Of a stretch of 64,000 bases of DNA, positions 24,181-59,941 are shown in pieces. Position numbers and translations under genes: made by a program. The stretch covers positions 128,001-192,000 of the forward strand of contig JAYFMW010000008.1 of the NCBI GenBank assembly GCA_042408215.1. Reading direction: 5' to 3'. The stretch is from Microcoleus sp. (GTDB lineage: Bacteria > Cyanobacteriota > Cyanobacteriia > Cyanobacteriales > Microcoleaceae). The notes below the pieces were generated by a model. That model was not told the origin of the DNA. It did no database searches and saw only the letters and a program-made list of their open reading frames with translations. Numbering within the stretch: the first letter of the stretch is position 1; each line of letters opens with the position of its first letter.

Positions 24181-24308
24181 CACGCGCTAGCCTGCGGTTC
24201 AACCCGAAATTTGTTGACAACCACCCCAATCGATCGGATATAATGGGTTGTCAACTAACCGCAGCATTGCCCAACCCTCATCGTTTAAATTCCGAAATTT
24301 TTACGACC

Positions 24309-24872
24309 ATGATTAATCCTAATATTCCCCATCAGGATCTTACATACAGCATCATCGGCTGTGCAATGAGAGTACACCGGAGGACACAAAAAGGTTTAAG
24401 GGAAAAACATTACCAAAGAGACTTTGATGCAGAAATGATTGAATCCGGTTTAACAACAGAAATGGAGTATCCCAGACAAATCTATGACGGTCAAGTTTGG
24501 ATGGGAATCCTCTATCTAGACCATTGGGTGAATGAATGTATTGTAGTAGAGGATAAAGCCGTGAATTATCCAATGACCGATAAAGATAAAGCTCAAATAA
24601 TAGCTTACTTAGCAGCTACAGGAGCACAAGTAGGTTTATTTATAAACTTTGGACGCAGCAAATTAGAATATCACCGCATCCTCCCACCAAAATCTGTACA
24701 AGGTTGGCAGAAACACATTCAACAATACTTGTGGAGGCCGAAAACAAGTGGCAGGGGTTGGACAAGAGGAAGTGCAGGAACATACGAAGAAACAGATGCC
24801 GAACTCCCCTTACCTCCCAGCATTCGACCCCCGAACCAGGAGGAAGATTCAACCGATGTGATTGATTGGTAG
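24309..24872 (+). CDS. GxxExxY protein (PD-(D/E)XK-like)
   Basis: LTYSIIGCAMRVH...GLREKHY...AQIIAYL...GLFINFG; probable ATG at 24309. Confidence 0.82.
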   Translation: MINPNIPHQDLTYSIIGCAMRVHRRTQKGLREKHYQRDFDAEMIESGLTTEMEYPRQIYDGQVWMGILYLDHWVNECIVVEDKAVNYPMTDKDKAQIIAYLAATGAQVGLFINFGRSKLEYHRILPPKSVQGWQKHIQQYLWRPKTSGRGWTRGSAGTYEETDAELPLPPSIRPPNQEEDSTDVIDW

Positions 24873-24935
24873 CAAGGGGGGGCGGTTAGCAACGGATTTT
24901 GTAACGGATGTAACGGATGATTAGTCGCTGATTAC

Positions 24936-25945
24936 AAAATCCGCTGCTAACCGCCGCCCCCACCAACCACCCATCCGTTAAATCCGCTACCAAATCCGTT
25001 GCTAACCGCCGCCCCCACCAACCACCCATCCGTTAAATCCGCTACCAAATCCGTTGCTAACCGCCGCCCCCACCAACCACCCATCCGTTAAATCCGTTAC
25101 AAAATCCGCTGCTAACCACCCCCCCCACCAACCACCCATCCGTTAAATCCGCTACCAAATCCGTTGCTAACCGCCCCCACCAACCACCCATCCGTTAAAT
25201 CCGCTACCAAATCCGTTGCTAACCACCCCCCCCACCAACCACCCATCCGTTAAATCCGCTACCAAATCCGTTGCTAACCACCCCCCCCACCAACCACCCA
25301 TCCGTTAAATCCGCTACCAAATCCGTTGCTAACCGCCCCCCACCAACCACCCATCCGTTAAATCCGCTACCAAATCCGTTGCTAACCACCCCCCCCACCA
25401 ACCACCCATCCGTTAAATCCGCTACCAAATCCGTTGCTAACCGCCGCCCCCACCAACCACCCATCCGTTAAATCCGCTACCAAATCCGCTGCTAACCGCC
25501 GCCCCCACCAACCACCCATCCGTTAAATCCGCTACCAAATCCGTTGCTAACCGCCGCCCCCACCAACCACCCATCCGTTAAATCCGCTACCAAATCCGCT
25601 GCTAACCACCCCCCACCAACCACCCATCCGTTAAATCCGCTACCAAATCCGTTGCTAACCACCCCCCCCACCAACCACCCATCCGTTAAATCCGCTACCA
25701 AATCCGTTGCTAACCGCCCCCCCACCAACCACCCATCCGTTAAATCCGCTACCAAATCCGTTGCTAACCGCCCCCCCACCAACCACCCATCCGTTAAATC
25801 CGCTACCAAATCCGTTGCTAACCACCCCCCACCAACCACCCATCCGTTAAATCCGCTACCAAATCCGTTGCTAACCGCCCCCCACCAACCACCCATCCGT
25901 TAAATCCGCTACCAAATCCGTTGCTAACCGCCCCCCACCAACCAA
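24936..25945. repeat. Tandem array of 18 units of ~52-55 bp
   Basis: Unit CACCAACCACCCATCCGTTAAATCCGCTACCAAATCCGTTGCTAACC(G/A)C(n); partial inverted copy at 24876-24919. Confidence 0.95.
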
Positions 25946-25956
25946 CAACATCTACA

Positions 25957-27954: not shown

Positions 27955-28239
27955 AAATTCGCCCTAAAAAATAGGCGCAACCCCTTGACTTTTTCCTGGG
28001 GTTGCGGTAGTATATATAGAATAATGGGATGGTTGCGAAAATTTTATTTTTGCCACCATCCCATTATATAGGATAAATCCTCATATAATCACAATACCAG
28101 AAACCCCCGTACATATCAAGCCCCCGCCGTGTAAAAAAATGTGAATTTTCGTCTCTTAACTTAGCCAGGAAACGCCGATCTAGAGGCTTTGCCTTCCAAA
28201 TATTAACAATAATAAAACATCTCAAAGAATTATAAACTC

Positions 28240-28641
28240 ATGGAACCACCAGTCGATCGCATCCGCCTCTCCCAAACAGGTAAAGACCAACTATCAAAAC
28301 TGAAACGATCGACCAAAATTGACCAGTGGAATATCCTCTGCCGCTGGGGTTTTTGTCGCTCGCTCGCCGAACCCAGCATCCCCTCTCCTGTACCGATTCC
28401 TAGCGACAGCAACGTCGAATTAAGTTGGGATGTTTTTGGCGGCGACATGGCCGATATCTTGATAATTGCTCTTAAGCAACGCTGCGATCAAGATAATTTA
28501 GGAACAGAAAAAGATACTCTGGCTAAACAGTTTCGCCTCCACTTGCACCGTGGTATCGGTTATTTAGCTGGCGATCCGAATCTTAAAAAAATAGAAAATT
28601 TAATTGCGATCGCCCTATCGCCGGAAAAATTAAGAAATTAA
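28240..28641 (+). CDS. dndE: DNA sulfur modification protein DndE
   Basis: RIRLSQTGKDQLSKLKR...WNILCRWGFCRSL...FRLHLHRGIGYL. Confidence 0.92.
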   Translation: MEPPVDRIRLSQTGKDQLSKLKRSTKIDQWNILCRWGFCRSLAEPSIPSPVPIPSDSNVELSWDVFGGDMADILIIALKQRCDQDNLGTEKDTLAKQFRLHLHRGIGYLAGDPNLKKIENLIAIALSPEKLRN

Positions 28642-32732: not shown

Positions 32733-34976
32733 ATGTGCAACGACCCATTAAATTGGTATCAGCACATTGATATTTTGACGGAACTGCAAGCGGTTTATTT
32801 CGAGCAGGGAGAGTATCTTAAAGCTTTTCGGATTAATAAAACCCAGCGTGCGATCGAAGAGCAATACGGATTTAGAGCTTTGAGCGGAGCCTGTCAATTG
32901 CAGCAGCAGCGACAAGCGGTTAACCCGTCGAGTCCCTCAGCCCCAAATCAAGCAGCAATTGCAGCGGAAATGACCACTCCCGCCAGAAAGATCTCAAAGC
33001 TGCTAGAAACAATTAGCCTGGACGACCATAAATTAACAATTATTCACGGGCCGATGGTCGGAACAGCAAAAGTTCTCTAGTCCATGCTGGATTAGTACCA
33101 GCTTTAAAGATCACTCCCCACGGGATACTTGGCCCGTATTAGTCAAAGTTTATACTGATTGGCTGGGGGAATTGGAAAATGCTTTGAATGGCGCGCTGTA
33201 CTACAAACAAGCCTAGGAATACAGGACAATCAGGGCCGAAATAGTACAGTAAATTCACGTAAATCATCGACTGGTAGTACCAGCCCGCACCGAATAAATT
33301 TATTTTTTTAGCACATACAAATAGCGATAAAATTGCCATAACAATTTATCAAATATTCGGATTTTTTACCAGTTTTAATAATTGTTCTTTCTTTCAACAT
33401 CAGTGGCTCAGAGGCAACTTTTTGATCTATTTTTACGTGGATTCTTAAATCTACCTTTTGTCAAGGTAATTCTGTGCTTGCGCTCAGATTATTTGCACTA
33501 TTTGCTAGACTGCGATCGCTTTCCCAATCTCGATGATGCTATCAACAATAATATTCTCGACAAAAGCATCCGCTACCAACTGCGAAGTTTTTCCATTAAA
33601 GAGGCGCGGGCTGCGATCGGACACTTAACAGAACGGGCCGAATTTTATTTAGAACCAGAATTGATAGATGCTTTCGTAAAAAATTTAGCAGAATATCTTC
33701 AAGAAGTGCGACCGATCGAATTGCAGGTAGTGGGAGCGCAACTGCAAGAATAAAATATTAATACTATAGCACAATACCAGCCGTTGGGCGACAATCCCAA
33801 AGCAGAATTAGTTCAGCGATCCCTCGAACGAGTAATCTCTAATTGCGGCCCGGTTAACGAAGACGCAGGTGGGAAAATATTGTTTTCCCTAACAGACGAA
33901 AGAGGAGTTCTGCTAATTAAAACCAAACACGAACTCTCCTTAGTTACAGGCCCGCCATCAGCAGATGAGGGGGAAACCGATTTGTCGGCGATCGGCAGAA
34001 TCAGCCGAATTTCGCTACACCGAAAAATCGCAAAACACCCAGAAATATCACCCAATAAAACCGATAACCTCGACTTAAATTTAGACATTTTAGTCGGTCA
34101 TGGTTTGTTATTTCTACTGCGGGAGTCCCCCGAAGATCCTGGCGATCAATTGGTTCACGACTATCTAGTGCGGCCGAGCCGTCAAAGATTCGGCTTAGAA
34201 GCCAGACTACATAAAGCAGAAGCTGACAAAAACATGAGTCAAGTACAACTCTACCGAGCCAATACTTTTCTCAAACAACTGCTAGGATTAGCAGTCATTG
34301 GCGTACTGCTACTAACCATTTCCACCATCGCCACCGTAAACTTTTGGTGGCGGGCTGTCGGTCAAAAACAGCTAGCTGTGGCTCAAACTCAGCGAGCCGA
34401 AATCAGCACCCTAACCGCAGTTTCAGAAGCACTTTATTTCTCCAACAACAAATTTGACTCCACGATCAAAAGTTTGAGAGCGGGGAAACAGTGGAGACTC
34501 CCCCGACGGTCAAACTTTTGCTTCGGTTAGTGCGGATGGAACTGTCAAACTCTGGAGTCTGGCTGCTGTTGATCCAAAACACCCGCTAGATGTCAGCAAG
34601 CTCAAACCTCCGACTGCGCCTGCTGAGAACCTTTGAGGGACACGCCGATCGAATTACTCAGGTGAGTTTGAGCCCGGATGGTTTGTTGGTTGCTTCCGGT
34701 AGTTACGATCGCCAGGTGAAATTGTGGAGTCGCAGCGGGACTTTGCTGAAAACTCTGACGGGACATAAAGACAGCGTGATGAGTGTGAGTTTTAGCCCGG
34801 ATGGGAAGGTTCTGGCTTCTGCTGGTAGGGATAATCCGGTGATTTTGTGGAATTTGGATCTTGACGATTTGCTGGTGAGGGGCTGCGATTGGGTGGGCGA
34901 TTATCTGAGGACTAATCCGAATGTGAGCGATCGCGATCGGCGTTTGTGCGACGGGGTAGCGCCTAAACAGTTTTAG
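32733..34976 (+). pseudogene. Decayed STAND-NTPase/WD40 repeat gene in several fragments
   Basis: Fragments YFEQGEYLKAF, LTIIHG, VKVILCLRSDYLHYLL, EVRPIELQVVGAQLQ, QLVHDYLV and WD40 tail [16 protein letters not shown], broken by stops and frameshifts. Confidence 0.75.
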
Positions 34977-35193
34977 TCATTTGATGTTTGGGGGTTGGCA
35001 GTTGACGGTTGACTGTGAAGCAACGGAGGACACGGGATTGCCGTTTCCCTCTCGCAAAATAATCTATCGCGATCGCCAGAGATGTAACTATCGCCCGATT
35101 AATTGTAGGGAAACGGCACTACTGAAAGCAGATATACCCTCCCTTAGAAAATTTATAATGTGGCAAGTAGGTTAATCTAGTAAAACTTTCAGG

Positions 35194-35403
35194 TCAGGAT
35201 TCATAATTTCCTGTTTTATACCTGTAGATTATGGATTTTTCTGTCCGCACATAAACAATTGTGTTTCTCTGATTTGGTAAAGGCTTAATATGTTTGATTT
35301 GACCGGAAACAATTTCTATAGGAATCAAACCGGGAGCGAATGCAGGACAAGTTCCATCTGGTCGAAAATAGAGACAGTATTGACATCCTTTGTACTCAAT
35401 CAT
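35194..35403 (-). CDS. Small Cys-rich putative immunity protein, allele 3
   Basis: GCxxC...TCPAF..GLIP...KHIKPLPNQRNTIVY, homologous to 37935 and 38222. Confidence 0.65.
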   Translation of the reverse strand: MIEYKGCQYCLYFRPDGTCPAFAPGLIPIEIVSGQIKHIKPLPNQRNTIVYVRTEKSIIYRYKTGNYES

Positions 35404-35408
35404 TTTTT

Positions 35409-35489
35409 TTACGATTCAATCACTACTACTTGTTCAGGAGGAGATACTATAAAGTATTTCAAGGCCGTAATTTCTACGATATCAATACC
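35409..35489 (-). pseudogene. Orphan toxin C-terminal remnant (ART-tip variant)
   Basis: Translates GIDIVEITALKYFIVSPPEQVVVIES*, which aligns by eye to GYDAI...YYIVFDPKQVVVVEE* of the main toxin. Confidence 0.6.
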
Positions 35490-35538
35490 TTAATTATTGG
35501 GTCGATTTTCCGAAACCAACAACTAAAATAGGAATATT

Positions 35539-36069
35539 ATGCTGATTACACCAGATGAACTACTAGAACGCTATCAAAAGGGAGAGCGCAATTTTGCCGG
35601 ATTGAGGATGGAGGCTAATACAGACCATCCTGATGTCTTATATGGTGCTCACCTAAGTAATATTATCTTAAGTGGAATTTACTGGCCGGGAGCTAGGCTT
35701 AGAGACGTTAACTTAACAAAAGCTAAATTAATAGGAGCTTATATGCCCGATGCTGATTTGACATTAGCAGACCTAACATGGGCCGATCTAAACGGAGCTA
35801 CATTGAGGCGGGCTTGTTTAGAATGTACTAATTTGACAGGAGCTAGGCTGGAATATGCTAACTTGATTCAAGCTAACTTGGAGGGGGCTGATACTCTTAA
35901 TGCTAATTTTGAAGATAGTCTTTTGTGCCAATTAAATTTGATGCAAGTTAGGCCTGCGGGTATTGCCATTGACCGTGTTAATATCCATTGCGTAGGTGCG
36001 TTACTCTGGAATACAGTCATGCCTGATGGCAGGTTTGTTGCTGAGCCTAAATACGATACGAGATACTAA
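35539..36069 (+). CDS. Pentapeptide repeat protein
   Basis: ELLERYQKGERNFAG, A(D/N)Lxx repeats, ALLWNTVMPDG. Confidence 0.85.
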   Translation: MLITPDELLERYQKGERNFAGLRMEANTDHPDVLYGAHLSNIILSGIYWPGARLRDVNLTKAKLIGAYMPDADLTLADLTWADLNGATLRRACLECTNLTGARLEYANLIQANLEGADTLNANFEDSLLCQLNLMQVRPAGIAIDRVNIHCVGALLWNTVMPDGRFVAEPKYDTRY

Positions 36070-36109
36070 ACAAGGCTATCCAATTAGTTCGGTCATTATC
36101 ATTACATAT

Positions 36110-36643
36110 TCAGTCGTGATACTTTGCACTATCAATAAACGTGCCATCAGGCAGATGAGTTTCCCAGAGCAAAGCCTTAGTGCAGAGTACCTGACGATGG
36201 CATTCTTCATCTAGCTTGACTTTGGAAAGATTTACTTTACAAAGAATACTTTCACTTAAATCAGCACCTGTTAAGTCGGTCTCAATTAATTGAGCCTCTG
36301 TTAAGTTAGCTCCAATCAATTTAGCACCTCTGAGGTTAGTTTTAAGTAGACGAGCCTCAGTAAGGTTGGCTCCTGTCAGGTTTGCACCTGAGAGGTCAGC
36401 CTCTCTTAGTGAAGTACGCCATAACTGAGTTCCAACCAACTGGGATCCTTGCAAGTTCATTAGGCTTAGGTTGGCATTACAAAGGCTTACTCCACTTAAA
36501 ATAATATCGCTTAAAAAAATAAGATCGCGTAAGTAAAGTGTGGTGCCATCCTCACGGTAGCTGTTATATAACTGTATACCAGCAAAGTTACGTTCCCCAG
36601 CATTATAACGCTCGCTTAATTCGGCTATTGTCATCTCAACCAT
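36110..36643 (-). CDS. Pentapeptide repeat protein (candidate nuclease immunity)
   Basis: ELSERYNAGERNFAG, ANLTGANLTEA, ALLWETHLPDG; starts 25 bp after the nuclease remnant. Confidence 0.85.
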   Translation of the reverse strand: MVEMTIAELSERYNAGERNFAGIQLYNSYREDGTTLYLRDLIFLSDIILSGVSLCNANLSLMNLQGSQLVGTQLWRTSLREADLSGANLTGANLTEARLLKTNLRGAKLIGANLTEAQLIETDLTGADLSESILCKVNLSKVKLDEECHRQVLCTKALLWETHLPDGTFIDSAKYHD

Positions 36644-36668
36644 AATTTTGTCTCCCTGAACTTATTAC

Positions 36669-37190
36669 TTAAAAGACTGTAGGTAAAGTAATATTGTTTT
36701 CAATTTCTTCTTGAACTTCGGTGGGAATGTTCGAGAAAAAGTTATAGCCAGTGTACTCCTCAATTTCATTGACTGAGAAAATGTGCTTGCGCCAGTCTAG
36801 TTTTGATGGTTCTTGGTTAGTATTTGGCAAAAGTACGCCAAAAGTTTTTGCCTTAATTGTGATATCTGTAGGACTTTGGCCGGGTGCTTCTGGAATTAAA
36901 ACAACTTTCCACAGCATTTCAGGAACATCAATATTAAATTGAGTAGCTCGAGACCTAATTAGTTCCTCTTTGTTTTCGGGTTTTAGTGAGGGAATCAGAT
37001 CACTTGAGCCATATCTGCCAGTAATAACGTAAACCTCATTGCTGGGGTTATTACTTTTTCTGACAAAGGTGTTTATGTCACCTTCGATCGCCCGCGCTTA
37101 AAATAAACTTCATTACCATTATTTATGTCATCAGGACTGAAAGTAGCATCAACTGGCCGAACATTGTCAGGATTTTGGGGAAAATTACTA
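36669..37190 (-). pseudogene. DNA/RNA non-specific (NucA-like) endonuclease toxin tip with internal deletion
   Basis: EVYVITGRYG...IDVPEMLWKVVL...DWRKHIFSVNEIEEYTGYNFFSNIP; upstream segment ends YFKRG and is joined out of frame near 37095. Confidence 0.7.
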
Positions 37191-37227
37191 TGGAAACCTC
37201 AATCCAAATACGATCGGCAATTTACCT

Positions 37228-37767
37228 CTATCCACTATTTACAGCGTTTTTCCAATAATTATAAGTCGTTAAACCAATAATTTCCTTGTTTTCATTATAG
37301 ATATCATCCAAACAATTGAAAAGAGCTAAAGCATAATTTTTCAATCCCAAAATTGTTAAACTTTTCAGTATCCTAGTCAGGCGCAGGTAATTGTGATTCA
37401 ATCTTTCAATCCACTTTCGGCTTCTGGACAAATATTCCTCAGATTTGGCAAGGACAATTTCCGCGTTTTCTTCTGTGCGGCATTCCAACCCGTAAAAAGC
37501 CAGCATGACTTTGAGAGATTTAATTAAGCGATTTCTCAACTCATCGCTTGTTCTAAAAGCTTGAATCGCCCGATAGTTCAAAGTAGGAGCGCTCGTATTG
37601 ACGTAACTTTTTTCTGTCAGCGGAAACAGCCATTGAATGTAGTCGTGTATCGCTTCCAACTTCTGGTAATCCCACGACCAAATATCCTCGATCGCCCGGC
37701 CTTGCGAATTTGGCTGCTGGCCGAGATAAAAATCTAAAATTGGATTTGATTCGCTTAAATAACTCAT
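37228..37767 (-). CDS. Opioid growth factor receptor (OGFr_N)-like protein
   Basis: LEAIHDYIQWLFPL...LAFYGL...NHNYLRLTRILKSL. Confidence 0.85.
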   Translation of the reverse strand: MSYLSESNPILDFYLGQQPNSQGRAIEDIWSWDYQKLEAIHDYIQWLFPLTEKSYVNTSAPTLNYRAIQAFRTSDELRNRLIKSLKVMLAFYGLECRTEENAEIVLAKSEEYLSRSRKWIERLNHNYLRLTRILKSLTILGLKNYALALFNCLDDIYNENKEIIGLTTYNYWKNAVNSG

Positions 37768-37785
37768 TAATTCCTTAGAAATGAT

Positions 37786-37911
37786 TTACTGACATTTGAA
37801 GATATCGATCGATTGTCTTAAGGTGCCGACATTGGTCAAAAGATACCAACCTTCATCCTCCTGTTTTCCTCTATATTTTCCCCACCAATAACCTCGACCA
37901 AATCCGCCACC
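37786..37911 (-). mobile_element. Probable IS4-family transposase fragment
   Basis: Translates GFGRGYWWGKYRGKQEDEGWYLLTNVGTLRQSIDIFKC, resembling cyanobacterial IS4 transposases. Confidence 0.5.
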
Positions 37912-37934
37912 GGTGGGGCTTTTGACTCTTGTTG

Positions 37935-38135
37935 TCACTCCGTCAGCCAAAAAGGTTTTTCCGCTGGTTCATAAACAATTGTATTGTCCCGATCGGGTAA
38001 AGGTTTTGTATGTTCTTTTCCGACGAAAATAATTAGTGGAATTCCTTCAGGAAAGGCGCGACAAGTTGGCATCTCGTTTATATACACGTCATGAAACCAG
38101 TGACGGCAGGCACGGCATCCTCCATATTCAGCCAT
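37935..38135 (-). CDS. Small Cys-rich putative immunity protein, allele 2
   Basis: MAEYGGCRACRH...PTCRAFPEGIP...HTKPLPDRDNTIVYEP. Confidence 0.7.
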   Translation of the reverse strand: MAEYGGCRACRHWFHDVYINEMPTCRAFPEGIPLIIFVGKEHTKPLPDRDNTIVYEPAEKPFWLTE

Positions 38136-38139
38136 TTGA

Positions 38140-38196
38140 TTAATCCTCAACAAAAACAACTTGTTTGGGGTCGAAAACTAAATGATATTGCATCAT
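38140..38196 (-). pseudogene. Orphan toxin C-terminal remnant (ART-tip variant)
   Basis: Translates MMQYHLVFDPKQVVFVED*, versus MMLYYIVFDPKQVVVVEE* in the main toxin. Confidence 0.75.
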
Positions 38197-38221
38197 TTGG
38201 TGGGGCTTTTGACTCTTGTTG

Positions 38222-38422
38222 TCACTCCGTCAGCCAAAAAGGTTTTTCGGCTGGTTCATAAACAATTGTATTGTCCCGATCGGGTAAAGGTTTTGTATGT
38301 TGTATAGTTCCGACGATAATAATTGGTGGAATTCCTTCAGGAAAGGCGCGACAAGTTGGAATACCGTTTATATACACGCGAAGATAGTGACGGCAGCCAC
38401 GGCATCCTGCATATTCAGCCAT
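38222..38422 (-). CDS. Small Cys-rich putative immunity protein, allele 1 (cognate position)
   Basis: ATG 4 nt after the toxin stop; MAEYAGCRGCRH...PTCRAFPEGIP...HTKPLPD. Confidence 0.7.
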   Translation of the reverse strand: MAEYAGCRGCRHYLRVYINGIPTCRAFPEGIPPIIIVGTIQHTKPLPDRDNTIVYEPAEKPFWLTE

Positions 38423-38426
38423 TTGA

Positions 38427-41400
38427 TTACTCCTCAACAACAACTACTTGTTTGGGGTCAAAAACTATATAGTATAGCATCATTTCTGGGCTTCTAGTCG
38501 CGATCGCATCATACCCCTGAGATTTGAGATCCTCTACATATCTAACCGTCCGCTCTGGTTCTTGTAGACCAGTTTCCTGACCGTAATTAGCTACCCGCTC
38601 ATCAAATTCAGTTAAATCCTGATAAACTTTGGGGTTTTTTACGTTCAGCATAATCTTTAATATCGGACCCTGCGTTGGATTGCCATTCTCATCACTGCTA
38701 AAATCCTTAGCCCTCTCCTCCAGATTTGTCAAATAAAAACCTTCTCCGAAGAAACCTCTTGTGAACCTACCAGGATTTACACCAATATTCGTAATACTAC
38801 TAGCACCCGCTGGGCTAGTTCCATGATAGAGCGTGCGTCCGCTGTAGTAGCTATTTTTTGTATATTCTTCAGCCTCAGCCAGAGTCATAGAAGGTTCCCA
38901 CTTCTTGCCAAAAGAAATATCGTCAAGGTAAACAGTGCCGTCATTGATTTCAAACTTGAGTAAAGCTGCCTTACCGCGCAGTTCTTCCGGGAGATTTAGG
39001 TAGAAAGTTTCCAAGCCTTCAGTACCATAACCGATCTTGCGAATATTGCTGTCGAGCTCTGGACCAGAGCTATTTATTCCAGATACTCGCTCTAAATCGA
39101 TAGTTCCTATTGACGTAAACTGTTCGTAACCAGCTACGTCTGCTCTCAGAGAAACCGTAATTTTTCTTCCCGCACCGAGTTGGTCTTCAGGTACGTGCAG
39201 GTCGAATTTCAAACTATCGTGTAAGCTGTTTTGATCGGGGACAAGAAATAGATTATGAATTATTTCTTTAGGTCCATCGGTTCCTCCCATCTTCAAGGTA
39301 TAGTTTTTTCCCGCCAAACCCGGGTTTAATATTCTTTGCTCTTCAGTTAAAAAGGTATCAATCTCATCCCGTTCATGCAGATGTCTTTGCGACACATTAG
39401 GATTGTCGGATACACTTAAAGAGTTGTAAAAAGACCAGCCTGGAACACTCTGAGCTGTAAAACGTTTGCTGGCGTCAAAATTACCATTGAAAAGGGTGGG
39501 AACTGCATAGTCACCTCGCATCTTGTTACCTATAATTTCGTCTGTGTAGGTATTGTCCTCAGTTACGGGGACACGGTTACTTACGTTAGCATCATAGGGG
39601 CGTAATTGAGAGCCACCACCCAGTACCGAGTAAAACCAGCCAGTACCGATACCTTCCCAAGGAGCTCGTTGTTCACCGTGAGTAAAATTAGCATTCGTAT
39701 GATCGGGTGTGTACCACGTAGGTGTGGTTGGATTGCCTGAACTATCTAGTTCCAGATCTCCAAGCCGACGGTAAATCCTCTCTCCATTCTTTGAGGGGAG
39801 TTGACTTCCGCTAAGGTTAGTTGTTCCTCCATACCAAGTTAGAGCCTGCATGGGAGGCTTTCCATCCGTGCTATTTTCAGTAAATCCAATCCGGCTCGAG
39901 CCACCAGAACCACCAAGGTGTACGTTCCAATCCGCCTCTGCAATTCGCCGACCAGGACGGGTATTGGTTTCCTGTGTCTCCAGAGCGGGGACGTCTTGAT
40001 AATAGTTATCGGCATAGGTAACATTTTCCCAGATCCGCACTTCTGGATCGCGGAAGCTTTTTAAGGAGCTTACAAAGTAATCTTGGTCGAAATCATGAGG
40101 ATCGATCGTTGTCATCTGGAGGTCGCGGTTTACAAGGCTAGTACCACCAGCGAGGGGAAAATAAGTCCCCAAACGCTGGACAATTTCATTGTCGATCGCT
40201 GCACCCTGACCAAACCCAATAAAGTGCATAGGTGAATTGAAAAGGGTGTTTTCCAAACTTTGATTTAAAGCTACCAGTGAGGCAAAAAAGGCATCTGCGG
40301 CTGCCTCAGTAAAGCCAGAGTTAAATGCGGTTGCTTCTGGCGGCTGTTCCCATCCAGGGATTAGTATCAGTGGTGCGCCAAATTTATGAGTTGGAGGGGA
40401 GAAGGTTGTGGAGCCATCAAAATTCAGCCACCCCCATTTGTTAGTAGCCCGATCGTAACGCATGACCAAACCATTTTCTTTAGTCAGGTGAGAAGCCATC
40501 TGCTCGAATTGGCGGTCTATCAAATTAGATTGAGGTTCTAAGCCCCGCGTTAACACCGTAACGCTGCTGAAAGTATTGCCACCAGAAATCGGAGCCGGCA
40601 GTAAAGTCTTAAACTTGTCGGTAACAACTTTTCTTTCCCTTTTGTTCGTCACAGCTTCCACAGCCCAATGATATTCCTGGCCCGCCGTCAAAATTCGGTC
40701 ATTAGAAAGAGTAAACTCCTCAGAAGAACCAGCCTTATTACCTCCATTCCAAGTCCAGGTACCATTCTTCCATTGAGCAGTCAGAACCCGATTCGGATTG
40801 TAATCTTTTTCGACAGTCGGATTTAACCCCGACCACCGATCGCCCGGCAACAAGCCCTTCCCTTGCGGAAAAACGCTTACATAAAGATTGACCTCATCGA
40901 CATCAGTATCGGGATTAAAACCAGTCAGACCGCATTCTTCACCGTCACCCTTCAAATCCCATTTAAAAGTAGGAGTTAGAGGATTGCTTTCACTCTCGCT
41001 AGTACCAATCGGCCCCTCTAATTCCAGCCAGTTTTTAACAGAAGCTATTGCCAAACCTTTAGGATTTCCACCGATACCAATTGGAGCGCGGTTCGTGCCT
41101 TCTGGTACGCTAAAGGTAAAGTTATTAATCCAATTTCCCCCGGTAATTTCGTAGTCAGCGGCAATACTGGCCAAAGGGTTGATATCGTCAATAGGCACGC
41201 GGGCGAGGTCAGCAACAGTCGCATTTCGCTCAGTGTTAGTCACGAAACCAACGCTACCCACACCCCTGTCGCGGGCGTCAAGCTTGTAATTACCCGGATT
41301 CTCTATAGCCTTAATCATTTCCTCAACATCGAAAACGTAGGAACTTCCTCCTAGCTCTAGGGTGGGATAGGAACCAATCAAATATTTGCCGTCGCTCGAA

Positions 41401-44400
41401 AGCGCTAGGTTGTTAGTTAAGCTGTCGGGAATCGGTCGAGTCGCAGCCACCAATTGAGGATTGGGCCCCAGCGGGTTTGCGATAATGCCGATATTTCCAC
41501 CCTCGCGCGTATTTACATTTGCCCTAGAGTTGCGGCCGGCAACAAAGGCATATTTCCCGTCTTGCGTTACTGTTACAGCCACTGCCTCGTTGACATCAAA
41601 ATAGTCAGTGGCCGCGCCCAGCGACAAAGGAGCGTAGCGAACTTCAGCATTAAAGTTGAGGGGGTCATCAGACGTAATGGAGAGCACGCCAAAGCCTTTG
41701 CCGTCATCCTGAAGCTTTATCTGTTCCCCATTACTTATGGCAAGGACACTAGCAAATCCGTTGGTGAACACCATTTTCATCGGGTCGGAAGTAGCAGCTA
41801 TGCCCTCTGTCTCCGATGCGGTGGGAATTACTCCAATCTGCTGGTGCCACTTCCGCTCGTTAGCACCCTGAGCGCTAGGTTTGTCGGCGGGGTCAATGTT
41901 GACAGCGTAAATGCGGCGGTTAGGTGTTTGTTCGTTATTGTCGGAACCTGTGGCGAACAGTCGCCGCCCGTCGCTGCTGATAGCTAACTGGCTCAGTCCC
42001 AGCGGCGATGAGACGTTAATTGTCTCGACAACGGTATGATAAGTTGCCGAATTCGGGTTAATGTCGAGAACGTAGATGTTGGGGCGATTTTGGTCGGCAA
42101 TGTAAGCATAATTGTCTTTGGGGTCAATGATAATACCTTGCGGTCTGGCCCCTGGAGGCAAGCTAATTGCATCGACAGTCTCCGTTTCCTTGGTGGTGTC
42201 TATTTCTCGCAGCGCTATCAAATCCACTACCGAAACGCGGCCGGTGTCGCGCAGAGTCACGTAGGCGCGGGTGGCATTGTTGGTAGCTGCTATCGACTCC
42301 GGTCGGTCTGATGTATTGGGATTACCTACAGGAATGTTAATAGCAACCGCCAATTTATCGCTGGTCTGGGTTTCAACAGTTGATAAAGGGTCTTTGAGAT
42401 TAATAACGTTGATTTTGTCGCCCGTGCGTTCGGTCACCAGCGCCAATTCAACGCAGGTAGGGGCGAGGCGGATATTTTCTTCACTTTCTAGTTCGACAAT
42501 CTCGTAATCTCCAGTACCCAGTCCGAAGCGCTTTTTCTGCTTCCTCGACACTACAATACTGGATTCGCCGACGGGTACGGTAATCGGAATTTTAACGGCA
42601 ATTCTGTAGCTATTTTCTCCCAAATCGGTGTTTTTATCCGGTATCAAAATGCCTGGATAAGTTTTGTAGCCGACGCGGAAACTAACTGTTAAATCCTCAA
42701 ATTTACCGCCCAAATCATTGGAGTTATTCAGGAAATTGCTACCTGTCAGGACGACTGTTGGATCGCCATTTTCTAACTTAAATTCAGCGGATTGAAGCAC
42801 TGGAGGTGCGAAGGGGTCTGCTGGGAATAATGTGGGTATATTTACAGTCGCTGTGACGCTGGGAATTCCTTCTGGGTCGAGTTCGACACCCGCCGGAGTG
42901 ACTACAGGTAAACCGACTTGTGGAATGGCGATGACTTTCAATCCAGATTGCAGATATTTAGCTAAGTAAGCAAGGAGTAAGATTGTAGCGGCGAATTGGG
43001 CTCCGGTAGCGGCGGCGATACCGATTAAACCTGCATTTGCTGCTAAAAAGGTGCTTTGGAGACCGAAATTAGTTGAGAGGTTGAGTGCACCAGCAGTTTT
43101 TGTGGCAGCATCTACAGTTGCGATAGTTGCGATATTAAGCAACTGTTTCAGTGTCAGAGCTGGAGCTGGAGCTCCTAGTAACCCTAGAGTTGGCCATATA
43201 AACATCGAATATTCGCCACTGTCCAAAACACCAGGAAATGGTGGGGAATTGGTTCGGATAGTGCCCGAAGCATCGACGTAGCCGGATTCTTGAATCAGCC
43301 AAGTTGGGTTTTGAATATTGTTAGCATCCGGCAGCGAACCTTTTCGCATGAATAAAATTTCGGTACCGGGAGATAAGCCGGCGGGGGCTGGAATTGCTAA
43401 TTGAGCGGGCAATTTCAGAGATTCATCACCCGTCTGGAAGTTGTAGCGATAGAGCATTGCTGGTTAGAGATGTCAAGCTAATAGCTGTATCTTCGGCAAG
43501 AGCACTCCTCGGCACCATCACAATTGAACCGTCACTGCCAGTAACTGCACCGCCATTTACTCCTAAAATTGTTCCGGCGGCGGCAGGAAGGGAGACTCGT
43601 ACTGGTACGACTTGTTCGGCTGCTCCGTGAATGACGGTGACGTTAGTAACTCCTTCTTCTATTGCAGTAATAAGGCCGTCTGAATTCACTTGCAATAAGT
43701 TGGAGTTTCCGGGGAAATAGCGAGTTCCTACTGAGCCGAATTTCAAATCGGGGGATTTGATGATATTTTCAATTCCTACTAAAAGCGAGCGTCCCATTCC
43801 GGCTGTCATGGTGACTGCTTTGGGATAGACATTCAAACCGTTAATCTCGGCTAGTGCTCCATTGAATTCTGCATCGTTGGTGGGGGCTGGCAATTTTCCT
43901 ACTCGCACCGCTGTTACTGCTTGCAGGTTGTTGCGACTTGCGCTCAAAACTGAAGTACCGTTGACCAAACCTGTCACTTTACCAGTTGGATCAATTGGTG
44001 CTACTTCTGGATTTATTGAAGTGTAAGTTAGATAAGAATCTGGCAGCACTACACCTTTTTGGTCGGCAAAATCTCCGAGCACAACTAATTCCGTATTCTG
44101 TCCTGCATTGAGCTGCGGATTACGCTTCACAAAATCCAAATTCAGCAGGGGAATGTCGCTGACGTTGACTGTTACCCGCGCGGGAATAGAACTCCCAAAA
44201 CCGTCGCTGGCAAGGAAATCAAAGCTAGCAATTCCAGAGAAACTGGTTGCTGGTTTGAACGATGCTTTGTTAGTTAAGGGATTGAAAATTACTGTGCCGT
44301 TTACTGGACCCTGGACGCTAATTGTGAGAGGGTCGCCTTCTACATCTGTGGCAAGATTGTCTAATTAAATAGTTGTCTCTAATTCTGTATAAGTCCGAGC

Positions 44401-47400
44401 GCTTGTCGGTGAAACAACGGGCGGATTGTTATCAGAATTCGGGGGATTAGCTGCTGCGAGCAATTGTTGTCCTAAGGTCGTATTGCGCCATTCTTTGTCA
44501 GGATTGATGACTGTATCTAGCAGCGGTGCGTTTCCTATTGCGCCACTAATTTTAAAGATTAGGTCATTGTAATCTCTGTCCGAGTTAGCGGCCGACATAT
44601 CTTCGAGGGCGAAGGTGTTGCCGGTGCCGGTAATATCGGCTATTTGTAGCAGATGAGCGGTATCGTTGGGATTGGCTGTGGCGATACTAAATAAGGGACG
44701 GTTTTCGGGGAACCAATTTCCCGAATACGAGGATTGGAGGGATGATTGTATTGTAGCGTTGGGGACTAACATGACGGCAAAGGTGTCGCCTGGTAGCATG
44801 GAGAAAGTTTTGATACCCTGATATTCGCCGCTGCCCCAATCCCCGTCGAAGGGCATCGCACCGGTGAATTTTGCTCCTTCTGTACTGTCGCGGATTACAA
44901 CGTTTCCTAATGTGGAATTAGTTAGGACTCTCCTAGCAGCTTCGGCGATGAATTCTGGAGTACCAGGTGTAAATGCTTCCATTCCTGAAAGGCTGAAAAT
45001 GCCGACTTCGCCAGTAAAGTACCCGCCGTCAAACTGATAGTCAAATTTGACTTTTCCTTGGTCATCTACAAGGAAAGTGCCGGGATTGGGTGAGTTGGCT
45101 GCTGCTGTTATTGAGAGATTTGTTGGGGAATTGGTATTGGTTTGGAAGTCGCCTGTACGCTGTGTTGAATTGGGTTGAGTGTCTGCAATATTGTCTGAAA
45201 ATTGAGCAGAGTTTTCGGTCGCTGACGCTAGCAAAGCGCTGGTTATCTCTGGGGATTGCGGCGCAATTTTGGTATCAGAATACGCAGGTAAAACAGCGAC
45301 AGTTTCTGTTGGACTTGAATTGCTATTATAATTGTTTGAAGTTGGTTCAGGTGGGGATTTAAGAGTTGAGGGTGAAGCGCTGGTTTCGACTGAGGCTATC
45401 TGTGCCGTACCTGCTGCTGTTTCTGATGGAGTTGAGAAGAGTGCTGGGCTTTTCTCAGTTTCTAATTCCGCTGCTGTTTCGGAAACAGTAATGTTCCGTT
45501 CGATTGTATCAGCAGTGAATTCTGCTGTCGATAGCGAATCGGTTTTTGTTGGCAATTCGCTTTCAAGTTCTGATGTTATTTCAGGAAAAGCGCTCTCATT
45601 TTCTACCGTAGCCGAATCGTTTTTTGTGGGAATAATTGACTCGGTTTTTGTTGGTAATTGTTCGGCGGCGCTAGAAACATTGGAGTGGGTTTCTTTTGGT
45701 GATTGTTCGCCCACATTAGAGCTGAGTAAGTCTGTTTTTGCAGGAGAATTTTCTGCAAGTGGAGCGATAATTGACTCTGTTTCTGCGGGGGGTTGAGAAA
45801 TGCTTGCAGTTACAGTTGTGTCGGTTTTGATTAATTCAGCATCTGCTGATAGACTGACAATAGATTCTGTTTTAACTGGCTGTTTAATTTCCGAAAGTGA
45901 GTCAGTATTGTTCGGAGTTTTTTCTGGGGTTTTAACTGCTGCTGTTGCTGTCGTCACCGCTACATTTTCACTGGCTGCTGTTTTTGGTATTGCAGCAGGT
46001 TCGGTTTTTAATGGGTCAACTTTTCCTGAATCATTCTGTTTGTCAGTTAAAGATTGAGTAGCGGTTTGTACTGGCTTTTGTAAATCGGTTGATTTGACTT
46101 CTGCACTGATATTAGTGTCAGGTAAAACTGGGTTAGATGTGGCTGGAATTAATTGGGCTGTTGGGAGCTGTGTTGTCGGCGGCAGTTGAGAATCTGAAGG
46201 GGGTTTTTCTGTCGGTGTTGCATCGATTGTTGGGGATTTTTTGTCTGAGTCTATCAGGGTAGCTTCGGCAACAGGAAGCTGTTTGTCTGACTTTTTTATT
46301 TCTGAAGTTGAGGCAATTGGAGCTTTTTTATCGGAGTCTATTTTGTCAGAAACTTCGGCAGTACGAGATTGTTCGCCTGAGTTGGCTTTCTCCACAATTG
46401 TGGAGTTTTGAGATTGCTTGTCTGAGTCTATCTTGTCGTCAGCTTTGGCAACTGGGGACTGTTTGTCTGTAGAGGTTTTATCAGTCGAGGGTATGTTTGG
46501 GCTAGCCGCAATAGTTTCGGTTAAATTTGTTACTGCAATTCGATCGGATTTTTCTGATGAAGTTGTACTATTATTTGGGATTGCGGTTGATGCAGTTGCA
46601 GGTGATGTTTTGTTCGGCTCTGAGCGATCGGTTGATACAGTGGCAGGTGATGTTTTGTTCGGCTCTAAGTTCTCAACCGTTGATACAGTTGCAGGTGATG
46701 TTTTATTGGGTTCTGAATCACTTTTGAGTGTAGCCCCTGACGATAAGGATGTTTTGTTATCTTCGGGTTTTGAAGTCGTTTCAGCAGTTGCGACTAATGT
46801 TGTTTTGCCCGCAGCTTTTTCGCTCGTTGTGTAGGCAGTTACATCCGGTAATTTTGGGCTGTTTTCTTGGTCGGATTTGGCAACTGCGGCTGCGGGTAAT
46901 TGTGTTGAGTTTTCAGCAGGTAATTCATCCCTCGCAGCGGTTGTAGTTGCTGTGGTTTTATTGAATTCTGAGTTGCTGATTGACGAGTCGATTGCAGGTG
47001 CGTTTAGAGCGGGTTTATTAAAATCAGAAGTATCGTTATTTGAGGCAATTCGATTTGGGTTGGTTAGGGGGTCTGCTAAGTCGGAGTCGAGTTTACCAAT
47101 TAGGGGGTAAACTTCAGAATTTGTGGTATCCCTGAGAGTGCTGTTAGTTATCAGAGGGCTGGTGTTGGCAGAAGGTATGCTGTTAATATCGGAGGCTTTA
47201 TTAATAATAAAAGCATCAGCTTCTGTTCGAATGAATTCGGATGCGGGCCCGCTTGCGGGTTCTATTAAGTTAGGTTATTCGGGGTTTTCAGAAGAGCCCG
47301 GAGTTTGATCTAATAAGGTTTTGTTAGTCTGAATTCCCGGCAGTTGTGGGGCGAAAGTTGGGGCAAGTCCGGGAATTAAGGATTCCATTTCTGTGAAAGG

Positions 47401-47427
47401 TTCTCTAATCGGATCGGTTAAAGGCAC
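38427..47427 (-). pseudogene. Giant (~3000 codon) exoprotein / polymorphic toxin: S/T/E/P-rich stalk, DUF4114-like, Ig-like, beta-propeller, alpha/beta-hydrolase-like, C-terminal ADP-ribosyltransferase-like tip
   Basis: AGGAG + GTG at 47427; in-frame TAA at 47275-47277 and 44365-44367; frameshift near 43430; the 1676-aa ORF ends with LYHGT, GFYLT, LNVKNP, LKSQGYDAI, YIVFDPKQV. Confidence 0.75.
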
Positions 47428-59931: not shown

Positions 59932-59941
59932 TTAGTCTCCT

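Follow-up and report, generated by a model that had tools for sequence, protein, structure and literature searches.

A decayed locus of probable polymorphic-toxin type on an undescribed giant protein chassis in a Microcoleus genome

Results

The window analyzed here is a stretch of 64,000 nucleotides from the Microcoleus sp. contig JAYFMW010000008.1 (positions 128,001 to 192,000), and between its positions 35194 and 47427 lie the remains of one giant gene followed by an array of small genes and gene ends. The window adjoins defence genes, namely a Dnd cluster and genes for NACHT-like and double-GTPase proteins. The initial annotation described a giant gene of about 3000 codons, and such a reading does run from 47427 to 38427 on the minus strand, but it is not one open frame, being broken by three lesions. 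The first is a TAA in frame at 47277-47275, a position that holds Gln in three relatives (the C7 paralogue, P0002 and the C30 Rhs protein), and the second is an in-frame TAA at 44367-44365, within a Big_9 domain, where relatives show Ser. The third is a frameshift near 43430 that results from a deletion of about 35 nt; the removed 11-residue stretch is kept in four orthologues, and a contig from a relative (X14) has 33 additional letters at 43430/43431 that code for it. Two DNA contigs from two studies (X1 and X2) span the deletion site without a gap, and another contig (X3) has no differences from the window over 43992-44788, around the second TAA. The lesions are real.

The gene is thus left in four pieces, all on the minus strand. 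Piece 1 (47275..47427) is an N-terminal leader of 50 codons that starts with the GTG at 47427 and is closed by the first TAA. Piece 2 (44365..47274, 969 codons) consists of the low-complexity stalk that the initial annotation had noticed, which is rich in Ser, Thr, Pro and Glu and includes a 45-nt tandem repeat in 2.9 copies, and of a domain, at residues 826-911, whose suspected resemblance to DUF4114 is borne out by a match with E 1.2e-19; the piece closes with the second TAA in Big_9. The Ig-like part is likewise present, as matches to Big_9 and Big_2 that stand together with a Big-like domain in piece 3 (43426..44364, 312 codons), whose closing TGA was created by the frameshifting deletion. 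Piece 4 (38427..43457) is the longest intact ORF, with 1676 codons, and encodes in order a hydrophobic segment, Ig-like domains, a beta-propeller, an alpha/beta-hydrolase-like domain, a jelly-roll-like pre-tip domain and an ADP-ribosyltransferase (ART) tip. None of the four pieces contains RHS, CdiA, LXG or MuF domains (Pfam search, E <= 0.01), in agreement with the initial annotation.

Several of these assignments are weaker than first proposed. What had been taken for a pair of hydrophobic helices is one strong segment of about 30 residues (Kyte-Doolittle 1.93), a second helix not being clear, and the propeller is matched as a lactonase type by a narrow 21.8 bits against a cut-off of 21.7. 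Structure models were poor, with mean pLDDT of 53 and 61, and it is from a model of mean pLDDT 53 that the hydrolase-like fold draws its weak matches to cell-surface alpha/beta hydrolases and the beta-rich pre-tip region its weak matches to jelly-roll carbohydrate-binding modules; neither region matches a Pfam family even at E 0.5. The hydrolase-like domain has GFGQG in the window and GFSRG in half of the relatives. The beta-rich domain does end, as described, in VYLDDISF (38910..38933, minus strand), which forms its last strand, and 48 junction hits among relatives have VYLDD/NxFF ahead of the tip.

The 5′ half of the window copy is pseudogenic, with only the last 1676 codons open, and because it is broken nothing from this copy shows present function. 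An alternative is that the 3′ ORF still works from the ATG at 43457 as a stalk-less protein, acting for instance within the cell or once it has lysed. It is open and free of lesions over 5 kb, databases contain many shorter ART-ended forms, of 949-1288 residues, and a contig from an RNA library, about 94% identical, covers 38330-43858. That contig, however, comes from a relative with the undeleted sequence, and contigs cannot show transcription of the window copy. The ATG at 43457 sits in the out-of-frame stretch made by the deletion and is therefore not a conserved start, and the product would lack the leader common to the full-length forms. The flank gene adjoining the giant locus is fragmented as well, which suggests general decay of the region. 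We regard a working 3′ ORF as quite unlikely.

The toxin-like tip of about 160 residues proposed at the outset spans exactly 160 (38430..38909, minus strand) and matches ART-PolyVal (PF18760) with 40.8 bits against a curated cut-off of 31.2 (E 4.6e-10), as do the tips of L037 and L081 with scores above the same cut-off. It also has a weak match to the catalytic domain of diphtheria toxin (E 0.3) and fold matches to exotoxin A, tankyrase and PARP1, all of them weak. The His of YHGT and the Tyr of GFY are conserved in full tips with one exception, the main tip of L011, where Asn replaces the catalytic Tyr. The third catalytic position, as aligned by eye with the glutamate of PARP, is Tyr or His, not Glu.

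Overlapping the stop of the giant gene is A1 (38222..38443, minus strand), which encodes a protein of about 66 residues with conserved Cys and His residues and is a candidate immunity gene for the ART tip. Two further copies lie downstream on the same strand: A2 (37935..38177) is 82% identical to A1, and the more divergent A3 (35194..35403) has 45% identity to A1, 90% to the L064 copy and 70% to the copy behind the L037 tip. A model of the complex of ART tip and A1 scored 0.82, as against 0.00 for the best of three controls. Of solved complexes, 116 of 157 attained that mark, as did 2 of 215 mismatched pairs; these counts hold only roughly, our own alignments having been used for the model. 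The runs share at least 90% of contacts, the partner has pLDDT 76-78, and within the interface lie the GFY Tyr, the third catalytic position and residues that flank the His. The tip is accordingly predicted to bind A1 in its active-site cleft. Nostoc minutum has the A domain in fusion with a macro domain (E 5.7e-41), and two genes further on stands a gene for an ADP-ribosylglycohydrolase. This arrangement suits an antidote able to bind the toxin and also to undo its action; P0164 is a second A-macro fusion. With 1741 cluster representatives, the A superfamily is large, and immunity proteins need not be its only members.

The rest of the array was described as mostly co-oriented, with two more ART-type ends and one NucA-type end. 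Everything in it is indeed on the minus strand save one pentapeptide-repeat gene, and the NucA-type end is confirmed, but the further ART ends number three and all are short decayed remnants. The first (38143..38237) keeps its start and about its last 20 residues, the middle being gone, and matches the C-terminus of the window tip with E 2e-5. The second (about 37786..37968) is interrupted by frameshifts, so that its start alone is recognizable, and lies collinear with L011, whose orphan ART end of 133 residues is intact. The third (35415..35489) is a C-terminal remnant of the subtype of the L037 tip (64% over 28 residues, E 1.2e-6). The small genes comprise the three Cys/His copies, one OGFr_N-family gene and two pentapeptide-repeat genes. 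The OGFr_N gene (37228..37767, minus strand, E 4.9e-34) closes the array of A genes and has the same position in L011 and L080. The NucA remnant (36669..37097, minus strand) is a 3′ end that matches positions 131-222 of the 223 of the Endonuclease_NS profile and lacks the catalytic part of the domain. Beside it lie pentapeptide gene 1 (36110..36643, minus strand), a candidate immunity gene of the lost NucA tip, and, convergent with it, pentapeptide gene 2 (35539..36069, plus strand). The two score 125.3 and 108.1 bits against a Pfam cut-off of 20.2 (E down to 5.7e-37), and both proteins fall below the cut-offs of the equivalog models for HetL, Alr5209, Qnr and MfpA.

Comparisons of the window with L064 and L011 (DISPLACEMENT) bear on how this array arose. 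Window positions 35122-37087 are 93.2% identical over 1969 nt to L064, the same locus in a sister genome, where the NucA tip is intact, and the similarity stops inside the NucA domain; positions 37238-38156 are 94.9% identical over 920 nt to the ART locus L011. As judged from these alignments, they show the ART tip to have displaced an earlier NucA tip in the window lineage. Orphan ends are also reused: those of L011 and L079 (PF18760, E 6.5e-6 and 4.1e-8) are of the subtype that forms the working tip of P0006 and P0007.

Relatives of the giant protein occur in 50 of 401 genomes and in 22 of the 142 genera sampled in the order. Public records label members 'DNA/RNA non-specific endonuclease' or 'DUF4114 domain-containing protein'. 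The six paralogues in the same genome all end in VYLDD/NVFF followed by a complete NucA domain of about 300 residues with a DRGH-type motif. Among 120 homologues listed, 99 have Endonuclease_NS, 11 have ART-PolyVal and 10 have neither, the last being truncated records or ART tips below threshold; of 45 sequences found behind the junction, 43 are Endonuclease_NS and 2 ART-PolyVal (44 distinct places, 42 of them NucA). The tip repertoire is narrow, with two enzyme classes seen, and NucA is not always a tip, since 11 of the 48 junction hits have a frame that extends past it by more than 1000 residues. The expectation that C-termini would vary behind a conserved body holds, except that the break is not at LDDI.F itself: divergence sets in some 50 residues into the ART domain or else 150-200 residues ahead of the junction. 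In twelve close ART-tipped relatives, identity to the window is 88-99% across the last 300 residues ahead of the junction and 53-100% in the tip; for P0006, P0008 and P0009 the corresponding values are 93-96% and only 53-66%.

Each tip also goes with its own small downstream gene, as anticipated. A Pfam Pentapeptide ORF lies within 2 kb downstream of 26 of 26 complete terminal NucA tips (19 genomes, 8 genera), at a median distance of 119 nt, and the whole 7.36-Mb genome has 69 such ORFs. In 23 of the 26 the nearest pentapeptide gene is convergent with the NucA-tip gene, so the two are not co-transcribed, which is unusual for immunity genes. Tip identity and pentapeptide-protein identity correlate modestly (Spearman 0.28 overall; within genomes 0.51, n = 24), and joint duplication can account for this. 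Directly behind the ART tips of the window, L011 and L037 stands an A-family gene in each case; ART type 1 goes with A subtype 1, ART type 2 (L080) with A subtype 2, and the Nostoc ART tip with the A-macro fusion. Orphan antidote genes that have no toxin occur as A3 in L064 and in L083, and copies that become progressively shorter, accompanied in each case by pentapeptide genes, stand in tandem arrays in the same genome and on a PCC 7112 plasmid.

Polyvalent proteins are proteins of phages and conjugative elements. Pfam derives the name ART-PolyVal from them, and this origin, together with the weak resemblance of ART domains of this clade to toxins acting on eukaryotes and with the defence genes beside the window, could point to eukaryotic grazers or phage-infected kin as the target instead of competing cyanobacteria. 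We consider this very unlikely, because dedicated antidotes that co-vary with the tip subtype argue for targets of the producer's own kind, and the toxin-less orphan antidotes fit protection against neighbours.

The leader and stalk are not confined to the giant family, since they also head a 7069-codon ORF in the same genome, the C30 Rhs protein, with DUF6531, 16 RHS repeats and a DNase tip. The leader is common to the window gene, the C7 paralogue, P0002 and the C30 Rhs protein, and although conserved among these it was found in only 5 of 401 genomes, all of one genus. We found no Sec signal, known trafficking domain or neighbouring secretion genes in the four pieces and the surroundings of the locus, and none of the six C39-peptidase ORFs of the genome is near any family copy.

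The predominance of nucleases raises another explanation, namely that the giant proteins are surface-anchored or secreted enzymes that degrade extracellular DNA for phosphate or in remodelling of the mat matrix, with the pentapeptide proteins acting as cytoplasmic safety inhibitors as in NucA/NuiA. The family NucA domains are close to Anabaena NucA (PDB 2o3b and 1zm8, E 6e-60), and 42 of the 44 post-junction places carry a nuclease. A passage of PMC9109919 describes DUF4114 as lectin-like and sugar-binding, which would suit anchoring in a polysaccharide matrix, and a passage of PMC9846622 lists a DUF4114 protein among the genes of Nodularia induced by phosphate limitation. An ADP-ribosyltransferase, however, requires intracellular NAD+ and would be useless outside, yet here one takes the place of NucA on this chassis and brings an antidote of its own; a nutritional enzyme would not be expected to show orphan ends, switches of the tip or truncated copies in tandem; and the leader and stalk are common to an Rhs toxin. 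A nutritional role therefore seems unlikely to us.

Discussion

Our results favor the interpretation, to which we assign a probability of roughly 0.7, that this locus represents, in decayed form, a polymorphic-toxin-type system specific to filamentous cyanobacteria, built on an undescribed chassis and inactivated in this genome. In its intact form, as seen in paralogues and orthologues, the protein has about 2500-3200 residues, with a leader, a Ser/Thr/Pro-rich stalk, the lectin-like DUF4114 and Ig-like domains, followed by the beta-propeller, the alpha/beta-hydrolase-like domain, the jelly-roll-like domain ending in VYLDDxxF and a C-terminal enzyme that would act as a toxin. The usual tip is a NucA-type DNA/RNA endonuclease, against which the producer may be guarded by the pentapeptide-repeat proteins encoded just downstream, probably as DNA-shaped decoys that block the nuclease. 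In the window lineage, recombination probably imported an ART-PolyVal tip together with its putative antidote A1. The incoming cassette displaced the NucA tip and left the old 3′ end and two pentapeptide genes as an orphan module, which now stands beside three decayed orphan ART ends and the antidote copies A2 and A3. Later, the 5′ half was inactivated in this genome by the two nonsense codons and the deletion, so that the window toxin is probably no longer exported, while the antidote genes, which remain intact, could continue to guard the cell against toxins of relatives. Of this account, the anatomy, the lesions, the tip displacement, the pairing of tips with small genes and the predicted binding come from the data, whereas toxicity, immunity, export and the ecological role, for which the initial annotation proposed competition between filaments in mats or crusts, are inferred.

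Taken together, the observations would also allow a broader and more tentative reading, for which we see somewhat less than even odds, in which filamentous cyanobacteria have a toxin-delivery chassis of their own with four undescribed parts. The genus-specific leader and stalk would serve the export of the giant family and of Rhs toxins alike, and the propeller/hydrolase/jelly-roll body would carry the tip into a neighbouring cell. Pentapeptide-repeat proteins would be DNA-mimic immunity proteins against NucA toxins, and the widespread small metal-binding Cys/His domain would be an ADP-ribosyltransferase antidote, with bacterial OGFr_N as a further component of the same defence.

To our knowledge, polymorphic toxins have been thoroughly charted in proteobacteria, firmicutes and bacteroidetes and hardly at all in cyanobacteria, and we know of no answer to the question of what pentapeptide-repeat proteins do in cyanobacteria, which has stood since their discovery. 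The strict pairing of NucA tips with pentapeptide genes offers a testable function and, if true, would be the first general one for part of the numerous cyanobacterial pentapeptide proteins that lack an explanation. A new candidate antidote family emerges with the small Cys/His partner of the ART tip, and the window is a clean natural case of tip displacement in which the ancestral and derived states are both kept in sister genomes.

Comparison with known systems

In the open-access literature we found no description of the giant family or of the pairings between tips and small genes. Tox-NucA is a listed class of polymorphic toxin for which the part of Zhang et al. 2012 (PMC3482391) covered here names the immunity families Imm36, SUKH and NTF2; cyanobacteria are not listed in its Tox-NucA row, and that part has no mention of pentapeptide, DUF4114 or OGFr. 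As described there, Rhs/CdiA-type polymorphic toxins share with the giant family a large multi-domain protein whose C-terminal toxin changes behind a conserved body, antidote genes just downstream, orphan cassettes and the displacement of an old tip by an incoming cassette. The locus has a variable C-terminus, an adjoining candidate immunity gene that changes with it and downstream orphan cassettes able to replace the tip. It departs from the known systems in having no N-terminal secretion or trafficking module of known type and no RHS, filamentous-haemagglutinin, LXG, MuF, HINT or VENN-type elements; its body is formed instead by the propeller, hydrolase-like and jelly-roll-like domains, with no Pfam model for the latter two. 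Unlike in Rhs/CdiA-type systems, most pentapeptide genes are convergent with the toxin gene, and only two tip classes were found.

Among solved structures, Anabaena NucA with its inhibitor NuiA is the closest relative of the family nuclease tips (by family profile), and it likewise pairs a cyanobacterial nuclease with a protein inhibitor. Anabaena NucA is presumably a small secreted enzyme, whereas here the nuclease ends a giant protein and its neighbour is a pentapeptide-repeat gene instead of NuiA. The search for NuiA (PF07924) carries no information, as it gave no match in this genome or in the control genomes. Within the window the NucA fragment is incomplete; the catalytic motif is complete in the paralogues.

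Toxins of the ART class that are paired with ADP-ribose-removing antidotes include DarT-DarG and Tre1-Tri1. The A-macro fusion of Nostoc minutum and the nearby ADP-ribosylglycohydrolase gene resemble these, whereas the window and its close relatives have the A domain alone, with an OGFr_N gene closing the array. ART-PolyVal is found here as the C-terminal tip of a cellular giant protein with a dedicated small partner; in the portion of the open-access literature covered, the term was met only in work on a eukaryotic family. For the pentapeptide proteins, Jablonska et al. 2017 (PMC5714182) report, in the part covered, YjbI-type pentapeptide genes beside GH-E nuclease toxins, with no immunity role assigned, and the covered part of a 2021 review (PMC8145042) holds no passage on nuclease inhibition or immunity. 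The DNA-mimicking proteins Qnr and MfpA, treated in the same review, belong to the same pentapeptide repeat family and embody the same idea of occupying a DNA-binding enzyme, but their known targets are gyrases, whereas the proposed target of the pentapeptide proteins of the giant family would be NucA.

The giant gene and its lesions

The best-supported reading of the locus is that of a polymorphic-toxin-type locus on a new chassis, inactivated in its own genome, in which toxicity, immunity and export are putative functions. The initial annotation described a single gene of about 3000 codons. A minus-strand reading of about that length does run from 47427 to 38427, but the stop-to-stop listing and the DNA place three lesions in it, so that it is not a single gene. 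The first lesion is an in-frame TAA at 47277-47275 (minus), a position held by Gln in a paralogue on contig C7 of the same genome, in the database protein P0002 and in a giant ORF on contig C30. The second is an in-frame TAA at 44367-44365 (minus), within a Big_9 domain, at a codon where relatives have Ser, and the third is a frame change between 43463 and 43426 (minus), at a site where four orthologues carry 11 additional residues. Contigs assembled from public sequencing runs bear on the second TAA and on the deletion site at 43430, while the first TAA rests on the assembly and on the relatives' Gln. DNA contigs from runs X1 and X2, which belong to two studies, bridge position 43430 without gap or difference, and a contig from X3 spans the second TAA with zero differences. 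A contig from X14, about 94% identical, has 33 additional letters at 43430/43431, the reverse complement of which encodes residues missing from the window gene. The assembly may derive from one of these runs, which leaves at most two of them independent. The read contigs agree with the assembly, and the lesions are therefore real. The 5′ half of the window gene is dead, and its last 1676 codons (43457-38427, minus) are open.

Pfam matched DUF4114 in this gene (E 1.2e-19), Big_9, Big_2 and a Big-like domain, a lactonase-type propeller as a borderline match and, in the last 160 residues, ART-PolyVal at 40.8 bits (cut-off 31.2). DUF4114 is described in PMC9109919 as a lectin-like domain that binds sugar in a calcium-dependent manner. 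RHS, CdiA, LXG and MuF domains, which the initial annotation had reported as absent, indeed had no Pfam match in the window gene, and the 641 residues between propeller and tip matched no Pfam family even at E 0.5. The structure model of residues 730-1678 is poor, and firm fold calls were ruled out for this region and for the tip, as mean pLDDT values of 53.4 and 61.1, respectively, are too low. In the Foldseek comparison of residues 730-1678, a probability of 1.0 was reached by cell-surface alpha/beta hydrolases (3lp5, 3fle, 3ds8) and by jelly-roll modules (CBM27/28, MAM and ephrin-receptor ligand-binding domains); these rows are hints only of hydrolase-like and jelly-roll-like folds. Where the hydrolase-like motif has its nucleophile position, Ser is found in 14 of 29 aligned relatives and Gly in 15, and the window protein has Gly. 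One segment of about 30 residues in the window protein is strongly hydrophobic (Kyte-Doolittle 1.93) and is missing in the distant relatives P0028 and P0104.

Tip replacement and orphan ends

The present tip can be traced by comparison with two sister loci. One of them, L064, is the chromosomal counterpart of the window locus in a sister genome. Its giant gene still has a complete NucA domain at the end, and behind it come pentapeptide genes and a gene like A3, one of the small Cys/His genes of the window. Window positions 35122-37087 are collinear with L064 (93.2% over 1969 nt) until the similarity breaks off inside the NucA domain, and positions 37238-38156 match the ART-tipped sister locus L011 (94.9% over 920 nt). 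Together these matches indicate that an ART segment was inserted into a NucA-type locus and that the 5′ part of NucA was removed. The inserted segment carries the ART tip, the small genes A1 (38222-38443, minus) and A2 (37935-38177, minus), an ART remnant and an OGFr_N gene. What is left of NucA is a fragment at 37097-36669 (minus), covering profile positions 131-222 of 223, and its two pentapeptide genes remain as well.

Two more ART-type ends had been noted at the outset. Such ends are present in decayed form, and tblastn finds three of them, all on the minus strand: 38237-38143 between A1 and A2, 37950-37786 between A2 and the OGFr_N gene, and 35489-35415 directly upstream of A3 (35194-35403). 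The stretch 37968-37786 was also considered as a transposase remnant, a reading that was rejected because the stretch begins with a match to the orphan ART end in L011. The matching orphan ART is intact in L011 and in a further locus, L079, as 133 residues lacking the His-bearing start (PF18760 at E 6.5e-6 and 4.1e-8, respectively), and the same subtype is the working tip of the database proteins P0006, P0007 and P0008.

The expectation that C-termini vary behind a conserved body was borne out: 12 close ART-tipped relatives are 88-99% identical to the window over the 300 residues before the junction and 53-100% identical in the tip, with P0006, P0008 and P0009 at 93-96% and 53-66%. An abrupt change had been proposed at LDDI.F; the tips do diverge, but the change falls about 50 residues into the tip, where the orphan ends start. 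Other mosaic breakpoints are found further upstream: P0104 keeps 80-86% identity with a NucA-tipped paralogue up to 150-200 residues before the junction, and the window protein diverges from P0024 from about residue 1000.

Candidate antidotes

In the lineage of the window the best-supported pairing is that of the ART tip with an A protein as candidate antidote. An A-family gene directly follows the ART tip in the window, in L011 and in L037, another ART-tipped locus, and in Microcoleus anatoxicus (L080) a gene of A subtype 2 comes after the type-2 ART tip. Cys7, Cys10, Cys24 and His42 are nearly invariant in A1, A2 and A3, none of which is matched by a Pfam or NCBIfam model. The complex model of tip and A1 scored 0.82 (runs 0.86, 0.82 and 0.75; best of three controls 0.00), a mark attained by 116 of 157 solved complexes and 2 of 215 mismatched pairs in a calibration that is only rough, as custom alignments were used. 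At least 90% of contacts are shared between the runs, with a partner pLDDT of 76-78, and the modelled interface takes in the Tyr of GFY, the third catalytic position and neighbours of the catalytic His, which would place A1 over the active-site cleft. Independent context is provided by Nostoc minutum NIES-26, where the gene behind a 232-residue ART-PolyVal protein encodes a fusion of an A domain with a macro domain (E 5.7e-41), and an ADP-ribosylglycohydrolase gene lies two genes beyond the fusion.

A profile search gave 1741 cluster representatives of the A superfamily, mostly of 55-90 residues. Its members P0150-P0297 include tandem forms of two to four copies and, in P0164, a second macro fusion. 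The superfamily has no Pfam model; weak HiPIP-like matches, with similar Cys spacing, appeared in 3 of 25 members scanned. An OGFr_N gene ends the A-gene array in the window (37228-37767), L011 (2373-2924) and L080 (5301-5837), that is, in all three ART loci where the array end is visible.

His and Tyr are conserved among the full ART tips, except that the main tip of L011 has Asn for the Tyr, and the residue aligned by eye as the third catalytic one is Tyr or His. In sequence the tip is weakly similar to the catalytic domain of diphtheria toxin (E 0.3). Foldseek with the tip model returned no match at E ≤ 0.001, and its weak top rows were all H-Y-E-clade ADP-ribosyltransferases.

For NucA tips we applied a fixed filter (ORF ending inside the locus, tip of 250-450 residues, at least 1 kb downstream), which yielded 26 tips from 19 genomes and 8 genera. 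The downstream gene co-varies with the tip, as had been anticipated: a pentapeptide-repeat ORF lies within 2 kb of all 26 NucA tips, at a median distance of 119 nt, and every one of these nearest ORFs passes Pfam Pentapeptide. Of the nearest ORFs, 23 are convergent with the tip gene and 3 are co-directional. The whole 7.36-Mb genome holds 69 pentapeptide ORFs, hence a chance expectation of about 2% per 2-kb window; as these loci share ancestry, 26 of 26 overstates independence. The sequences of NucA and PENTAPEPTIDE co-vary positively, yet this is confounded by joint duplication. NucA tip with pentapeptide protein is the best-supported usual pairing. A search for NuiA gave no match in the control genomes either, so the result for the window's own genome carries no weight.

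Searches of open-access papers found no description of the giant family, no account of pentapeptide proteins conferring immunity to nucleases and no role for bacterial OGFr_N.

The family and a nutritional alternative

Six paralogues occur in the window's genome, five in tandem on C7 (3194, 2291, 521, 1181 and 1134 codons) and one on C29, and all end in VYLDD/NVFF followed by a NucA-type endonuclease of about 300 residues. In a large protein collection 200 homologues passed; the 120 listed comprise 99 with Endonuclease_NS, 11 with ART-PolyVal and 10 with neither. A third tip class among these 10 was rejected: apart from one ambiguous case (P0095), they are either truncated or turn out to be NucA fragments or type-2 ART tips that score below threshold. 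Names among the matches listed include Microcoleus, Tychonema, Oscillatoria, Kamptonema, Scytonema, Okeania, Phormidium and others, and the pre-tip domain occurs in 50 of 401 genomes and 22 of 142 genera of the order. Sixty fetched stretches yielded 48 junctions; three with 9, 21 and 31 residues behind the junction were left out, and the 45 with at least 60 residues carry Endonuclease_NS (43) or ART-PolyVal (2), or 42 and 2 over 44 distinct places, one having been fetched twice. The closest solved structure by family profile is Anabaena NucA (E 6e-60). When an alternative chassis for the ART tip was sought among longer proteins, all 12 matches belonged to the same giant family.

This NucA majority would be accounted for if the family consisted of nutritional nucleases rather than toxins, an explanation that leaves the ART swap, the antidotes and the orphans unexplained. 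The main weaknesses of the polymorphic-toxin reading are the narrow tip repertoire, the convergent pentapeptide genes and the internal NucA domains of some giant relatives. At 11 of the 48 junction hits the frame stays open for over 1000 residues, the ORFs reaching up to 13,403 codons, so NucA is not always terminal.

Some genera have ORFs of 3,000-13,403 codons (L020, L024, L041, L047, L048, L053, L054 and others) that contain both the pre-tip domain and NucA and continue for more than 1000 residues behind NucA. None of the four such ORFs with their end in view, one with only 280 nt downstream, is followed by a pentapeptide gene.

Mobility and neighbourhood

The annotated record of a mobilizable plasmid of Oscillatoria nigro-viridis PCC 7112 holds an ART-tipped 'DUF4114 domain-containing protein' and a 61-codon hypothetical gene. 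Behind these lie two 'DNA/RNA non-specific endonuclease' genes, both truncated, and a convergent gene for a 'pentapeptide repeat-containing protein' accompanies each of them. This plasmid, pOSC7112.03 (NC_019731.1, L084; MOBP relaxase), carries the closest named orthologue, its giant gene annotated as two overlapping CDS of 521 and 2467 codons. The window is chromosomal, with ftsZ, ftsQ, dapB and cbiC nearby, so the locus has moved between replicons.

The flanking gene at 32733-34976 has broken up into four or more ORFs (115, 123, 248 and 128 codons, with WD40 repeats in the 128-codon one), and the same flank is a single ORF of 1257 codons in L011 and of at least 1085 codons in L064. The whole neighbourhood of the locus seems to be decaying.

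Further along the window, a 1303-codon protein (59401-63853, minus) has an HExxH-like motif, PPC and a long coiled-coil-like Glu/Arg-rich stretch. The letters AHH occur in its C-terminus, where a Pfam scan did not confirm an AHH nuclease. The next gene has a sub-threshold SUKH-1 match (21.5 bits, cut-off 25.4), and the two may form a second toxin-immunity pair. A Dnd DNA-phosphorothioation cluster at 19332-28641 comprises two DndB-like genes, a PAPS-reductase-type DndC, an SMC-like DndD and DndE; a strongly skewed G+C-rich stretch lies at about 24-26 kb, and helicase, SMC-like, Uma2 and endonuclease/exonuclease/phosphatase-family (Exo_endo_phos) genes lie upstream of Dnd at 12060-18607. At 1757-5942 a NACHT/NB-ARC-like ATPase, a double-GTPase-like protein and a WD40 protein adjoin, families known in conflict systems of multicellular bacteria.

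Leader, export and relation to Rhs toxins

By eye, the N-termini of 19 database homologues show no evident signal peptide, most being truncated or having mis-called starts. The window gene begins with a leader of about 45 residues, which also begins ORFs running off the ends of contigs C13 and C15 and which, with this query, was found in 5 of 401 genomes, all of one genus. The leader was also considered as a double-glycine-type signal for a C39-peptidase ABC exporter; it ends in Pro-Gly, not Gly-Gly, and none of the genome's six C39 ORFs is near a copy of the giant gene, so this idea stays a weak speculation. Leader and stalk recur together at two contig ends and at the head of a 7069-codon ORF on C30 (G000:C30:1443-22649; L071, L072), which has two DUF4114 domains, PPC, He_PIG, DUF6531, 16 RHS repeats and a C-terminal DNase_NucA_NucB. 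The window gene thus has its leader and stalk in common with an Rhs toxin of the same genome, a link to a known kind of polymorphic toxin.
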